Part shown: in pieces, positions 129 through 54,085 of the stretch
How the letters are laid out: each line of letters opens with the position of its first letter
Numbering within the stretch: position 1 is the stretch's first letter
Source of the DNA: Octopus vulgaris
Lineage: Eukaryota
Assembly (NCBI GenBank): GCA_951406725.2
Contig: OX597828.1
Location: 26,660,001-26,724,000, forward strand
Reading direction: 5' to 3'
DNA length: 64,000 bases
Position numbers and translations under genes: made by a program
Notes under the pieces: model-generated
Databases searched by the model: none
What the model was told of the DNA's origin: nothing
What the model saw: the letters and a program-made list of their open reading frames with translations, nothing else

Positions 129-750
129 CCAACTACATAACTACATAATATATGATGACAGCATAGATTAGGAAGAGGTTTTGGAAATGACAAATGACTT
201 ATTTCAATGGAATAATTAAAAACTTTTATAAGTGATCAAATTGTAAAAAAAAAAAATCAAAAGCGCCAACAGTTGATCCCCGGATTGGTGAGTTCACAGA
301 CGGTTCTTTTTAGAAAAGCTTGATGGAGGCAACTTCCATGCTTATCTGAAAATAATATAGAATTAGTGTTATTATTATTATTTCTTTTATTAAAATGTTA
401 CAGAGGTTTTTTTCTAAGAAACTACGTGGTTCTTTTGTTGCTCTCTAACCATAACAAATATAATGAATTTGGCTTCGCTCTTTCGTTCCCAGTTTTTTTC
501 TTCTTTTTTTTCAATCAGGTCTCAAAAGAAATACATCAGTTATCTTTTGCTGAGATGTATATAAGTATGTGTGTATGTATGTGTGTGTGTACACACATAC
601 TCATATATATATATATATATATGTAAGCATTAGGTACATGTACCAATACATATATGCACACATACGTGTATATATCTGTCTATCAATATAAATAGATAGA
701 TCCAAATACATATATCCATATCTATCTATACAGACACACACACACACATA

Positions 751-784
<34 letters not shown>

Positions 785-909
785 CATGCCTCTGTGTATG
801 TGTGTGTTTGTGTACATAATTTAAAAAATTCTTTAATACATATATATATATATATATATATATAGGGAGATGTATATAGCAAGTGATTTGATCTGAGATC
901 GTGTTTTTG

Positions 910-953
<44 letters not shown>

Positions 954-1245
954 GCGCACGTGGGCACACACACACACACGCACACGTTGTCAAAATGCAA
1001 AGTTAACGAGTGAGACGTGTTTAATTTGTCTTAACCAATCAAAATAATACATTTTAATTAAGCCGCGCTTCCGATTTCTTCTTATTCTTCTTCTTCTTCT
1101 TCTTTCTGTTATGAATTTTTACAACCCAACATAAAAACGCTAAGTGAATAAACGAATGATAATTTATTTAGACAAACCGAACAGAATCACACAAATATCG
1201 TGGCAATATTTCGCTTTCGCTGTGACTAACAGCGAACGAACTCAC

Positions 1246-1264
1246 CGCTGTGATGTGAAACTGG
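1246..1264 (-). other. Candidate micro-exon (19 nt, or 15 nt using the downstream AG)
   Basis: Minus strand reads aatgcattattttacgttacag|CCAGTTTCACATCACAGCG|gtgagt: pyrimidine-rich acceptor and consensus donor. No partner exon identified. Confidence 0.25.
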
Positions 1265-1481
1265 CTGTAACGTAAAATAATGCATTATATAAACATACAT
1301 GCATACATACTTAAACACACACACACAGACACACATATAAAAGGTAAACAAATGCTAGCAAGGAATTTGTAAGCTGATGTTCCAGTTTCGATTCCCGATA
1401 CAATTCACTTCACCTCACTTGATCAATCATTGATGTTTTTTTTTGTTGAAAAAGAATAAATTAATAAAATAAGGCGGCGGC

Positions 1482-1522
1482 GGTGGTGGTGGTGGTGGTG
1501 GTGGTGGTGGTGGTGGTGGTGG
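1482..1522. repeat. (GGT)n microsatellite
   Basis: Direct reading. Confidence 0.95.
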
Positions 1523-1937
1523 GGATATTACATAAACTTTTTTTTTCCCGCTTGCCTTGACTCAGAGACGTGACACCGTAGTACCTATGTGAGAAGTGGT
1601 TACTATTTAATACCGGCGACTCGTCCCTTAATTTCATCATCACCATCATTAGCCTCATCATCATAATCATCGTCGTCGCTGTACGGGTCGTGGGTTTTAC
1701 TATCATTCTATTCACACATCCGTGACACACGCAAGCACATACACACACACATACACACACACACACACGCACATGTATATTATTTTTAATTAGCAGAACT
1801 CACACAGTGACTCAAGAGTCAAGAGTTTCGTGTATTTCATTCAATATTATCAAAGTGGCAGGCACGAAGCAGTCGGCCCTTCGTAATCTGCCGAGTAAAA
1901 AATAGAAATTTATATACATACACACATATAAACGTAC

Positions 1938-2021
1938 CTACATACATACGTACATACATACATACATACATACATACATACATACATACATACATACATA
2001 CATACATACATACATACATAC
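1938..2021. repeat. (TACA)n microsatellite
   Basis: Direct reading; a second long array lies at about 3648-3802. Confidence 0.95.
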
Positions 2022-2408
2022 AAACGTACATACATATATGCATGCATACATACACACACACAAACGTACATAAATACACACACACATATATGCGTGTATA
2101 AATGTGTGTATATATGTAAATATGCAAAAATAGGTTATATACATACATACACACACATTCATATATAAAATCCACACATATGTATATACGTCGTATGATA
2201 TATGTGTATATATGTGTACACACACATCAAGTTAACATTTTGTTTTAATCTCTGAAAACTTGTTTTGCTAGAGAGATCGAATGGGGTGGGAGCTAAAGGT
2301 AAACCAGGGTGACGCTCCAGAAATGAAGAAATGATTTTTTAAAAATATTCTAGTGTCTTTAAAATCTTTCTCTGATTTGCCAAAAACCGAATGGTAAAAG
2401 TTCAACTT

Positions 2409-2747
2409 AGTGTCTTCTACTATAGCCTCGGGCCGACCAAAGCCTTGTGAGTGGATTTGATAGACGGAAACTGAAAGAAGCCCGTCGTATATATGTATAT
2501 ATATATGTATATATGTGTGCGTATATGTTTGTGTGTCTGTGTTTGTCCCCCTCCTAGCATTGCTTGACCACCGATGCTGGTGTGTTTATGTCCCCGTCAC
2601 TTAGCGGTTCGGCAAAAAGAGACGGATAGAATAAGTACTGGGCTTACAAAAAGAATAAGTTTCGGGGTCGAGTTGCTCAATTAAAGGCGGTGCTTCCAGC
2701 ATGGCCGCAGTCAAATGACTGAAACAAGTAAAAGAGTAAAAGAGTAA
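2409..2747 (+). mobile_element. tRNA-derived SINE family A, 5'-truncated copy
   Basis: Closely matches the reverse complement of the copies at 29611, 31067 and 43531; internal (TA)n/(TG)n spacer; gtaaaagagtaaaagagt tail. Confidence 0.9.
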
Positions 2748-2935
2748 TTCCTGATGTTAGACCGAAAAAAAAAGTAGTCAGGTAAATAAAAAGATATATA
2801 AAAAAATTAAAAAGAAGAAAGGAACCACACGTTTTTTTTTTTTTGCTTTCCATTTGGAAAACTACTCGTGTGCGATTCAAGTGTTTATATTTATTTCTAG
2901 GCATCAAATAACAAACAGACGGGGTAGTTTTCTGT

Positions 2936-2937
<2 letters not shown>

Positions 2938-2968
<31 letters not shown>

Positions 2969-3125
2969 TGTGTACAGTGCTCAGGTGCACTACAACTCAT
3001 CTAAAGTGTATATATAATCAGGTGTAGTTTCGGCGGATTTCGGAAAGCATGAGGGCCTTAAAGGATGCAGTGTCATGGCAGTCAACAACTGACGCAGGCA
3101 GTTTATTCCATGCTTCAGCAACTCT
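2938..3125 (-). mobile_element. 5'-truncated CR1/L2-type LINE 3' end with (TTA)n tail
   Basis: Minus frame 3125-3018 reads RVAEAWNKLPASVVDCHDTASFKALMLSEIRRNYT*, matching the RV..WN.LP..VV....FK C-terminal motif of CR1/L2 ORF2; short 3' UTR then a trinucleotide tail. Confidence 0.8.
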
Positions 3126-3928
3126 TTGTACTTTATGGGGTTTTCCCTACATTTTTTTGCAAACTGGATTGAAACTAGTTGCGAAAAGTGAGCCGGGCAC
3201 TTGTGAAAGTCAGTCTTGCCCCGTATTATGAATGAACAAGAAACACGTATTAATACATATTTATTAATGTAAACACGAGGAGAGGAGAGTGCGCGCACAC
3301 GTTTAAGCTTTCTCAGTCCCACGAACCAAACGCACTCTCTCGATTCGTAAGCGTGTCTGTGTGTAAGTGTGTAACAGGGATCGTCTGAGTGGCGATTGAT
3401 GTGATGTTGATGTGTGTATGTGCTACCGAATCCTATGTAAGTATGTATGTATTAATGTACGGTTCAATAATGAGATGGTTCTCGTTATTATTGCGTTTCT
3501 CTACAGTTAAAAAAAATTTTTTTGGTGGGGTGTATTTGTGTATGTCGGCGCGAGGAAAATATATGGACGTAAAGAATGAAGTTACGGATGTATAGGTGAT
3601 TCATAGTCTTTTAATACGTGCATAGATATACAGACATTAACCCACGCATACATACATACATACATACATACATACATACATACATACATACATACATACA
3701 TACATACATACATACATACGTAAATACATACATACATACATACATACATACATACATACGTACATACATGCATACATACATACATACATACATACATACA
3801 TACAGACATGCACACATCCACACAAATATTCTTTCTCTTTATATATATACAGACATATGCATATATATACAAATATATACATGAACGTATGAGTGTGTAT
3901 ACGTATATATATATATATATACATAAAC

Positions 3929-3973
<45 letters not shown>

Positions 3974-4339
3974 CACATTTATTTATCTATATATACGCAT
4001 ATATATATATATACATACATACATACATGCATACATAAACATATACATATACACACACACATATATATATATATAAATATATATCTAGCAGGTGATGACA
4101 AATGAGAAACGATCACACTATAGCCAGTGCTCCAGCATAGCCACAGCCTCTAATTAAAACAAGTAGAGGTATAAGTATATACACACTCTCAAATATATAC
4201 ACTTGATTGCATTTTTATAATATACAAGTATGCACTTGTAAATATCTATCTATCTCTCTGTCTGTCTGTCAGTATATCTATCTATAATTATATATATGTA
4301 TATATATGTATATGTATGAATGTATATATATGTATGTAT

Positions 4340-51420: not shown

Positions 51421-51421
<1 letters not shown>

Positions 51422-51775
51422 TCATTGGACACAGTGCGAGATGACTGGTGTTATCGCTAGGCCTAACTCATCGTTAAGTCAATACCACCATGACCGATAT
51501 CCAATCTACAGTGGAGAAGGCTAGCCACTGGATTTGGTTAAAAAGGGACGATGAGCGATGGCTAGAAGAATATTGAGCTTTATTTGATAACCAGCTGATC
51601 TAGCAAGCGGGGCCTCATATCAGTGAGGGGTGGGGTGCCGGTGCGCATTGATGCCGTCGAGAGGTAGGCCCCGAAACGGCATGCATTCTCTCCTGATGAC
51701 CCCATACACTTGCTGGCCTCCGGTATGCAGAGTTTTTGACTGGTAGCACTTGCTTGTGCAAGTTGTTTGCAAGAC
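51421..51775 (+). mobile_element. 5'-truncated HERO-like (RLE-type) non-LTR retrotransposon 3' end inserted in (ATT)n
   Basis: Frame 51421-51576 FIGHSAR*LVLSLGLTHR*VNTTMTDIQSTVEKASHWIWLKRDDERWLEEY* fits the HERO C-terminal F.G.S...L..LG...EKAS.W.W.KR...W pattern; (ATT)n on both flanks (51388-51419, 51776-51785); ~200-nt GC-rich 3' UTR. Confidence 0.75.
51609..51699 (+). ncRNA. Candidate rearranged hammerhead-like ribozyme, copy 1
   Basis: GGGGCCT(51609-15)/AGGCCCC(51666-72) next to GAAA(51673-76); ATGCCGT(51651-57)/ACGGCAT(51676-82); C51658 site; GAGAGG(51659-64)/TCTCTC(51687-92); CTGATGA(51693-99). Confidence 0.6.
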
Positions 51776-51789
51776 ATTATTATTAATAG

Positions 51790-52606
51790 TTTCAACTTTG
51801 GGTACAGGTCCAGCAATTTTAGGAGTTGGGTAAGTGAAGTACATCAGCCCCAGTACTCAACTGGTACTTGATCAGCTCCCAAAAGGATGAAAGGCAAAGT
51901 CAACATGAATGGCATTTAAATAATAATAATAATAATTTCAAATTTGAGCCACAAGAGCAGCTTGGGGTCAGTGGGAAGGAGCTGATTACATTGGACCCCC
52001 CCCACCAATGTTCAACTGGTACCTATTTTATCAATCCCAAAAGGATGAAAGGCAAAGTCAACCATGGCAGAATTTGAACTTGGGACCTACTGAATTTGAA
52101 TGAAACTGCTTAGCATTTTGTCCGACTCTATGGTGATTCTGTCGGCTTGTCATCTTTAATTGGTTCAAATTTCAGCAGAAGCTCTGCAATTTTCAAGGTA
52201 GGTGGAGGTTAGTTGATTACATCAACCCTAGCGTACAACTGGTTCACCTTTCCTCAACCCTGAAAGAATGAAGGACAAACTTGTTTCAGCGGGTTTTGAA
52301 CTCGGAACATAAAGATCTGGAAGTAAGCCTTGCTAAGCATTTTGTCCAACATTCCTACGAGTCTACCACCTTAATAATAATAATAATAATAATAATAATC
52401 CTTTCTACTGTCACACAAAGATTGAAATTTTGTGGAGAGGAGGTAAGTCAATTGCACCAAGCTCAGCACTCAACTGCTTGGTATTTCACTGACCTTAAAA
52501 GGATGAAAGGCAAAGTTGATCTTGGCAGAATTTCAATTCGGATGATAAAATTGGATGAAATGCCGCTGAGCATTTTGTACTCTATGCTAACAATTCTGCC
52601 AGCTTG
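51790..52606 (-). mobile_element. Head-to-tail array of about four decayed family C SINEs
   Basis: Core aaggatgaaaggcaaagtcaac recurs near 51883, 52041, 52265 and 52499, with (AAT)n spacers. Confidence 0.78.
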
Positions 52607-52805
52607 CCATCATCATCATCATCGTTTAGCATCCGCTTTCCATGCTGGCATGGGTTGGACAGTGCAACTGGGGTCTGGGAAGCCAGAAGGCTGCACCAGG
52701 CCCAGTCTGATCTGGCAATGTTTCTACGGCTGGATGCCCTTCCTAACGCCAACCACTCCATGAGTGTAGTGGGTGTTTTTTACGTGCCACCAGCACAGGT
52801 GCCAT
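52607..52805 (-). mobile_element. RTE-tail repeat (family R), young copy
   Basis: Nearly identical to 63660-63853 and 46120-46311 in reverse. Confidence 0.88.
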
Positions 52806-53256
52806 ACGATAAGAATAAGAATATGGGGTTTATACTGAAAGTAATGCAAAAGTACGCATAATTTATTCTCTATTAAATGTCATGGGTCTTCTGTATAGAT
52901 ATTTGTATGTGATAAGCAAAGAATAAAAGGTATGCACCTTCCCGCAATGCCATGCTGGGGGTAACCAAACACTAAACCATACCCATAACCTCATATCTTT
53001 CCTTGTCGGTTATTTTATGTTTTTTATTTTTTTTTAGAGGGAAATTGGCAGAGAAGCTAGAGTGTAGTTTATGAGAGGTATTTGCCAGATAATCATCATC
53101 ATCATCATCATGGAACTATGTTCCATGCTGACATGAGTTTGATGGTTCGTCTGAATCGGATGGCTCCAAGAACTGCATTGAGTTCTAGTTTATACTTTGC
53201 ATTGGTTTCTATGGCTGGATGCCTTTCCTAACACCAACCACTTAACATATAGTGAA

Positions 53257-54085
53257 CTCTCTCTCTCTTTACTCTTTTACTTGTTTCAGTCATTTTAACT
53301 GCGGCCATGCTGGAGCACCGCCTTTAATCGAGCAATTTGGCCCCGGGATTTATTCTTTGTAAGCCTAGTACTTATTCTATCGGTCTCTTTTGCCGAACCG
53401 CTAAGTGACGGCGACATAAACACACCAGCATCGGTTATCAAGCAATGCAAGGGGGACAAACACAGACACACAAACATACACGCACATATATATATATATA
53501 TGGCCACAGCTCGTGAGCTGAAACTAGATAAAATAAAATAAAAAATAAAATAAAATATGTAAAAGTAAAAAAATACACAAACTGGGACAAGAACGTGAAA
53601 CATTTAGAAGACAACACAAAAAACACGGACGGGACTTTCCAAAGCTCTCGGTCATCAGTCAAGAACCGGATCATCTTCGCAATTTCGGCTGATTAATCTT
53701 GAGATTGCTCCGATCTGGGCAGCCCCCAAGGGAAATCTAAGCCAAGCGCATTAGATTCCTTGGAAGAAAGCCTCGAAAGTATACAACACAGGGACGGAAA
53801 ACGGACGATGTTACACGAATAAAAATACAAAAATACGTAAAAACAATAATGATAGCATGAATAAGAATACAAAATACGTAAAAACAATAACAAAACCAGG
53901 ACGTCAGGACAAGCGTCTTTTCGACAGGACGAGTTAAGTTTCAGTTTTCGTCTACCAAATCCACTCACAAGTCTTTGGTTGGCCCAAGGCTATAGTAGAA
54001 GACACTTGCCCAAGGTGCCATGCAGTGGGACTGAACGGAACCATGTGGTTGGTAAACAAGCTACTTACAACACAGCCACTCCTGA
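53257..54085 (-). mobile_element. SINE family A split by a ~440-bp insertion (53501-53938)
   Basis: 3' half at 53257-53500 ends in the internal (TA)n; 5' half resumes at about 53939 (ttcagttttcgtctaccaaatcc) and ends cacagccactcctg. Confidence 0.85.
53652..53724 (-). ncRNA. Candidate rearranged hammerhead-like ribozyme, copy 2
   Basis: Minus strand GGCTG-cccagatcgga-GCAA-T-C-TCAAGA-ttaat-CAGCC-GAAA-TTGC-gaagatgatccggt-TCTTGA-CTGATGA; all three helices Watson-Crick paired. Confidence 0.62.

Follow-up and report, generated by a model that had tools for sequence, protein, structure and literature searches.

A predicted hammerhead ribozyme with an interrupted catalytic strand near the 3' ends of mobile elements in the Octopus vulgaris genome

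Results

Two motif copies and their host elements

The stretch of DNA studied here (the window) comprises 64,000 nucleotides of the Octopus vulgaris genome, contig OX597828.1. A sequence check showed that it holds two copies of a hammerhead core, copy 1 at 51609-51699 on the plus strand and copy 2 at 53724-53652 on the minus strand, and each strand of the core was found where the first-pass annotation had placed it. The sole word common to the two copies is 9 nt long and lies at the core.

Copy 1 belongs to the 5'-truncated 3' end of an R2-like LINE of the restriction-like endonuclease (RLE) type (family 1). According to the family alignments this element extends over 51421-51777 (+) and includes the last ORF codons, a stop codon at 51575-77 and a 3' UTR that holds the motif. 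The 3' UTRs of RLE-type LINEs had been suggested as hosts beforehand, and for copy 1 the suggestion is borne out. In a full-length member of the family (L479) the reverse transcriptase domain RVT_1 was detected with E=3.9e-19; R2 proteins are its best PDB matches, with LINE-1 close behind, so that the element has the R2-like reverse transcriptase of an RLE-type non-LTR retrotransposon. It may be a member of the HERO clade, judging by its C-terminal motifs. Searches of Pfam and PDB with one C-terminal stretch from a LINE gave no family. Family 1 comprises 2,218 first-look candidates and 1,019 exact matches to the core pattern in the genome. The LINE occurs in partial tandems: a motif-bearing 3'-end copy directly precedes the full element in L479 (positions 493-4229, period 3,736 nt), and the same head-to-tail, pseudo-LTR-like junction is present at a second locus (L027). 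A third LINE pair, 3,738 nt apart, was seen among the exact pattern matches. At three further loci (L140, L163, L164) a different RLE-like ORF (zf-RVT) is followed downstream by the motif of a second LINE family, which suggests a chimeric subfamily.

Copy 2 belongs to a 5'-truncated copy of a non-coding tandem element (family 2), delimited by family alignments at 53555-53947 (-). The unit of about 720-800 nt has no ORF; 2,726 first-look candidates and 1,168 exact pattern matches were found. Members have a fixed 3' end in (TA)n and form head-to-tail arrays with inverted 5'-truncated partner copies. In the available part of PMC8557442, (TA)n targets, partial tandems and inverted partner copies are traits of Naiad Penelope-like elements, and the host of copy 2 thus shows the traits of a Naiad-dependent non-autonomous Penelope-like element. 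The predicted cut precedes the 3' end by about 120-150 nt in both element classes. Short interspersed repeats and microsatellites make up the interval between the two motifs (51780-53500) in a patchwork. In view of the copy numbers of the motifs, their proximity looks like chance.

Layout of the motif

Both copies contain the core strands CUGANGA and GAAA. Non-circular permutations of the hammerhead core, named SGC, CSG and GCS, were described by Eckert, Friedrich, Weinberg and Weinberg in 2023 (PMC10085705); in the accessible text of that work block C (Ib-CUGAnGA-IIa) is assumed to be uninterruptible. Here block S contains strands IIIb and Ia on the two sides of the cut site, and block G contains IIb, GAAA and IIIa. 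The full layout is 5'-IVa-[hairpin V]-IIa-interaction strand-IIIb-UH|Ia-short link-IIb-GAAA-IIIa-interaction strand-Ib-CUGANGA-IVb-3'. Comparison across families established six helices together with the core positions. Helix IV is formed between the strand that follows A9 and the strand nearest the 5' end; IVa abuts V, and V abuts IIa.

In copy 1 (all coordinates on the plus strand) the 5' strand of helix IV has a distal part at 51600-07 and a junction-proximal GGGG at 51609-12, which pair with 51709-16 and 51700-03, respectively (duplex energy -15.1 kcal/mol). Hairpin V follows at 51613-51628 (6 bp, 4-nt loop, -6.2 kcal/mol), and then IIa at 51629-51636 in the family-wide register, with 51632-36 able to pair; its G-run is longer than usual and is broken by a T. 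The 5' strand of the stem I-II interaction helix (51641-51644) pairs with 51683-86, and the helix reaches 5 bp in one family 1 copy (L024). Block S consists of IIIb at 51651-57 (including U16.1), C17 at 51658 and Ia at 51659-64, and the predicted cut is after C17, 51658. A 1-nt link joins Ia to block G (IIb 51666-72, GAAA 51673-76, IIIa 51676-82). Block C, without its IIa, consists of Ib at 51687-92 and CUGAUGA at 51693-99, and the 3' strand of helix IV (51700-51716) begins directly after A9.

Copy 2 has the same order on the minus strand. The 5' strand of helix IV at 53766-53777 pairs with 53649-37, hairpin V at 53725-53764 consists of two stacked 7-bp segments, and IIa at 53724-20 is followed by the 5' strand of the interaction helix at 53718-12, which pairs with 53672-66. 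Block S includes IIIb at 53708-04 (with U16.1), C17 at 53703, where the cut is predicted, and Ia at 53702-697; a 5-nt link leads to block G (IIb 53691-87, GAAA 53686-83, IIIa 53683-79). Then come the 3' strand of the interaction helix (53672-66), Ib (53664-59) and CUGAUGA (53658-52). Two unpaired bases after A9 and the 3' strand of helix IV occupy 53637-53651. For the helix that follows A9 we had also considered pairing with 51630-35 or with 53713-10; both were dropped in favor of helix IV after viewing other families.

The core has the U16.1-A15.1 pair, H17 between stems III and I, and the G10.1-C11.1 pair, and stems I, II and III abut it with covariation, as in the hammerhead class. It differs from Types I, II and III, which have a circular C-G-S order and a three-way junction: the order is S-G-C, and no Rfam match was obtained. 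The block order S, G, C, the short link between stems I and II and the interaction helix are those of type-SGC. However, an uninterrupted block C, with IIa within 0-2 nt 3' of A9, is absent: IIa lies upstream of block S, and in both window copies the base next after A9 is C. The first-pass annotation thus described the core strands correctly, including the upstream origin of the stem II partner and the multi-pseudoknot fold that the strand layout supports. Its description was incomplete, without helix IV, hairpin V or the stem I-II interaction helix. It had also proposed that the short link replaces the tertiary contact between stems I and II. This idea has to be given up because an interaction helix of the tertiary type is present.

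Conservation of the layout

The first-pass annotation had proposed to compare a strand-order descriptor with shuffled sequence and to look for covariation across copies. A descriptor of the S-G-C order with at least 4 bp in each of helices I, II and III, applied to both strands of the 64-kb window, found exactly two sites, copies 1 and 2, and had no match on either strand in 60 dinucleotide shuffles of the window. An Rfam search of the motif region gave five matches, all with E above 1 and none a ribozyme; among the 150 matches listed for the whole window were microsatellite-driven matches to miRNAs.

In the 2.8-Gb genome, the pattern CGAAAC-N10-26-CTGATGA has 8,288 matches versus 570 for its reversed control. 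The first 100 of the 8,288 matches, which fall into 18 clusters, were scored for the full layout, and 48 of 100 loci passed the anchored score; the corresponding counts in the controls were 22 of 7,674 for cross-cluster chimeras and 2 of 2,000 for upstream shuffles. Perfect helices IV and V were found in 28 of the 48 passing natives versus 122 of 1,578 tail swaps. Among the 52 loci that failed, many are 5'-truncated inside the motif or decayed, and a few are unrelated. Two other patterns were rejected. The first one (1,821 matches versus 1,597 in the control) had a spacing too long for most families, and 0 of 30 loci passed. The matches of the second one (20,921 versus 2,573) were not counted, being mostly one repeat whose sequence has the form of a canonical type I hammerhead. 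At L068, L080 and L178 this abundant repeat shows CUGAUGA, a hairpin and then GAAAC, beside (TAA)n.

CUGANGA and GAAA were chosen by the search patterns, and therefore their constancy is no independent evidence. When stem I alone defined the register, 20/20 hand-picked representatives had U16.1 together with a non-G at position 17, versus U in 73 of 300 other registers; three further stem III pairs form in 14/20 versus 10/300. Two MAFFT alignments of 22 and 12 sequences were not fitted to the structure, and structures were read from the member sequences; 19 members of the larger alignment were chosen by a score of at least 19 and three were added by eye. Two-sided changes occur at 25/36 pairs of the 22-sequence alignment and at 20/43 pairs of the 12-sequence alignment, which is the covariation that had been looked for, and 0 of 500 shuffles reached these counts; the aligned sequences are related, which inflates the counts, and therefore the shuffle counts are not probabilities. 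Pairing is 81-89% in the proposed structure versus 26-47% in slid registers. Compensatory changes are seen in every helix, including all five pairs of helix IV (22-sequence alignment). Stem II pairs in only 70% of cells of the 12-sequence alignment.

The automatic picker of helices IV and V was wrong in 9 of 16 representatives, and its count of 14/16 was set aside. For the 7 of 16 with an unambiguous pick, unpaired bases are absent from the junction, and A9 is followed first by a G-C, A-U, U-A or C-G pair. The junction of family 2 has 2+1 unpaired bases.

Judged by sequence comparison, the motif is a real, widespread and covarying hammerhead variant that resembles type-SGC but fails to keep its intact block C. 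The earlier claim of a hammerhead core in a non-standard order that is missed by standard searches is thereby upheld across families.

5' ends of element copies

If cut RNAs are copied, 5' ends of truncated copies should gather just past H17. Such a pile-up, an indirect sign of cleavage, was found in two of the three families examined. The family 2 sample consisted of 88 loci from the first 100 of 1,168 matches (90 alignments), of which 84 alignments were kept after five duplicates and one mis-anchored row had been dropped. In this sample 22 ends lie at +1..+21 (three exactly at +1), three at +22..+36 and three at -20..0. This is 5.4 times the flanking rate, with a nominal P of 5e-5 for an interval chosen after viewing family 2. 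In another family (30 of 1,478 matches) 11 ends lie at +1..+21, none at +22..+37 and one at -20..0. An AT-richer stretch further upstream has a lower rate, and therefore TA microhomology alone is no explanation. Stalling of the reverse transcriptase at the folded core, a rival cause, would give a similar pile-up. Family 1, the LINE, showed no pile-up among 30 copies (0 ends at +1..+30 and two at -20..0).

Occurrence outside the octopus genome

The available part of PMC8557442 reports Naiads without canonical hammerheads and flags eight 'half cores'. We read the 3' ends of Naiad consensus sequences from its supplement S5 by eye, with names inferred from the sequence order. The split layout was recognised in nine such ends from five phyla, in ctenophore, cnidarian, acanthocephalan, crustacean and cephalopod Naiads. 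Six of them (Bfor, with a stem I of only 2 bp, Chem-3, Movir-2, Plae, Dst-4 and Esco) belong to a set of 18 ends, six of which had been chosen for the half-core flag; Aacu, Obim and Ovul are the other three. By eye, the Octopus Naiad ends are nearly identical to one cluster of the genome studied here.

The same 18 consensus ends include four that read by eye as type-CSG, with the interaction helix, from nematode and spider (Parc, Nbra-3, Hpol and Smim, which precede Naiad-1_Nbra, Naiad_Hcon, Naiad_Asuum and Naiad_Lpol in the supplement). Two others (Movir-1 and Chem-4, preceding Naiad-2_Movir and Naiad_Amil) carry the P4-hairpin hallmark of twister; one of these two has a GAGGG-like strand upstream of the hallmark. 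No ribozyme was recognised by eye in the remaining six of the 18 ends. The Dst-2, Dst-3 and Ppla ends share a conserved CUGACGA-containing stretch; by eye it matches neither of the two layouts and is possibly another variant.

Among the metagenome matches listed, 2 of 119 pass the full layout, one convincing (L504, score 22/22) and one doubtful (L483). None of the viral-contig matches listed and scored pass (0/119 and 0/133, in total 0/252). Several of them are type II hammerheads of the canonical kind, and the descriptor was right to ignore these. At L608, L622, L650 and L661 clusters of canonical-looking type II hammerheads lie between phage genes.

Discussion

Proposed architecture and alternatives

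We interpret the motif as a predicted hammerhead that cleaves itself within one molecule. It would belong to the non-circularly permuted group (SGC/CSG/GCS), with the opening at a position within the core that is new, and we give this reading a probability of about 0.7. Helices IV, V and II and the A9.G12 arm would form a four-way junction. We argue that IV is stacked on V and II on the core, and that the junction may hold A9 beside G10.1 without a covalent link, so that a normal active site could form and cut after H17. According to its primer sequences, a cleaving SGC construct has a single inserted base at the A9-G10.1 position (PMC10085705, accessible part). In partial tandems, cuts in the upstream and downstream copies might free an RNA of unit length, which may become circular, or define where its 5' end lies; the reverse transcriptase of the element would then prime about 120-150 nt downstream of the cut site.

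The pairing partners of stem II can be assigned in other ways. The stem II strand that had been proposed for copy 1 is GGGGCCU at 51609-15 (+), i.e., the first of two G-runs. If it holds for family 1, the second G-run pairs after A9 and there is no hairpin V, or else two RNAs or tandem copies combine to build the core; in a variant of this reading the two G-runs could act as an on/off switch. This register is possible by sequence and locally more stable in window copy 1, where crude duplex energies are -14.1 and -8.8 versus -7.8, -5.8 and -6.2 kcal/mol, and the first G-run pairs 4/4 in 40 of 44 family 1 copies versus 27 of 44 for the one that immediately follows V. Tandem copies do exist. But in other families the strands are not interchangeable, with IVa, V and IIa abutting in that order, and these families fit the second G-run. 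The homologous stem II strand of copy 1 is thus probably the second G-run (about 51629-36), with 51609-12 in helix IV. A dimer, which had been offered as an alternative, is not needed: the helices all have sufficient length to form within a monomer, and cleavage during transcription is reported for type-SGC RNAs, which have this order. We regard the first-G-run and two-RNA readings as improbable. Still less credible is the reading as an ordinary type-SGC ribozyme, in which the strand following A9 would supply a stem II that is weak or decayed, and helices IV and V would be incidental. Of 100 loci, 27 (23 from a single family) allow a 4/4 pairing of that strand with IIb (0-2 nt insert), yet none of the 27 is all Watson-Crick, and helix IV has two-sided changes at 5/5 pairs. 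Such a stem II is impossible in both window copies, where A9 is followed by C and G12 is preceded by C, and for them this reading is already largely refuted.

Another possibility concerns the function rather than the fold. The fold may be real and kept mainly as a structured 3' signal, for binding of the element's own protein or as a stall of reverse transcription, with cleavage lost, very slow or gated by a protein because A9 is uncoupled from G10.1. The motif is always near the 3' end of the element, the LINE family lacks a pile-up, and stalling is able to explain the pile-ups elsewhere; moreover, the hammerhead of a Penelope element is dispensable for insertion in vitro, where its PAc mutants still insert. 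On the other hand, U16.1 and H17 are kept in all 20 representatives though they were not selected for, and other Naiads carry a type-CSG hammerhead or the twister hallmark at the same place, which suggests interchangeable self-cleavage under selection. We consider this explanation unlikely, albeit the most plausible of the three. For the self-cleaving split core, we lean, with only modest odds in favor, to the view that it is an active, ancient and common 3' processing module of Penelope-like elements and R2-like LINEs.

Implications

The motif breaks a stated assumption of the six-permutation hammerhead scheme, that block C is uninterruptible. Non-circular permutations, until now a matter of rare environmental contigs, are here present in thousands of copies in the genome of an animal, and the motif offers a candidate answer to how Naiads thrive seemingly without hammerheads, including the 'half cores' that PMC8557442, in its available part, could not fit. 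For an R2-like LINE whose 3' UTR holds the ribozyme, it suggests that tandem units are processed by a ribozyme. If a four-way junction can open the core, this would be a new insertion site for engineered switches. If the proposed architecture is true, there is a fourth way to open a non-circular hammerhead, with the catalytic strand cut between A9 and G10.1; a common 3' module serves tandem or circular RNA templates; and non-circularly permuted ribozymes are among the most abundant of invertebrate genomes, missed by all published descriptors.

Comparison with known systems

A full-text literature search, with subscription journals, bioRxiv supplements, most supplementary figures and Repbase/Dfam notes outside its scope, found no description of the layout and none of permuted hammerheads in Naiads or LINEs. 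In its accessible part PMC13725137 mentions hammerhead variants 'containing additional helices' and cites three papers for them, its reference 13 being one. The first-pass annotation had called the architecture new. This is true only in part, since the S-G-C order with a short link is published and cleaves (PMC10085705); what looks new by sequence is the broken A9-G10.1 link, replaced by a predicted four-way junction with closing helix IV and hairpin V.

Type I hammerheads of Penelope-like pseudo-LTRs and of non-LTR retrozymes also lie near the 3' end in partial tandems (accessible parts of PMC8557442, PMC11167929 and bioRxiv 10.64898/2026.07.22.740005), and family 2, like retrozyme-type elements, is a tandem non-coding unit of similar size. 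Those hammerheads, however, have the standard circular order and a three-way junction, and the motif described here occurs also in 3' UTRs of R2-like LINEs. The PK hammerhead (PDB 8YDC; Zhan 2024, PMC11300833, as far as available) likewise combines a hammerhead core with an added helix and a pseudoknot, but its A9 is still linked to the G10.1-C11.1 pair and its order is standard.

Type-CSG, represented in the accessible part of PMC10085705 by two sequences, has the same circular strand order and four of the helices, and by eye it takes the equivalent 3' position in four Naiad consensus sequences. Its block C is intact, the chain being opened between G and C, whereas here it is opened inside block C.

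The closest relative is type-SGC (HRIMA-1 and variants), with the same S-G-C order, short covalent link between Ia and IIb, interaction helix, full core and two core pseudoknots. According to the same part of PMC10085705, type-SGC RNAs cleave during transcription at 0.007-0.19 per min, the descriptors require CUGAUGA(U)G and then stem II, and the genomes of known organisms yielded no example except a single weak GCS candidate. The published IIa follows CUGAUGA directly or after one U, whereas here it precedes block S, and the A9-G10.1 link gives way to helices IV and V. Type-SGC is published there only from metatranscriptome or metagenome contigs; the variant described here resides in an animal genome at high copy number.
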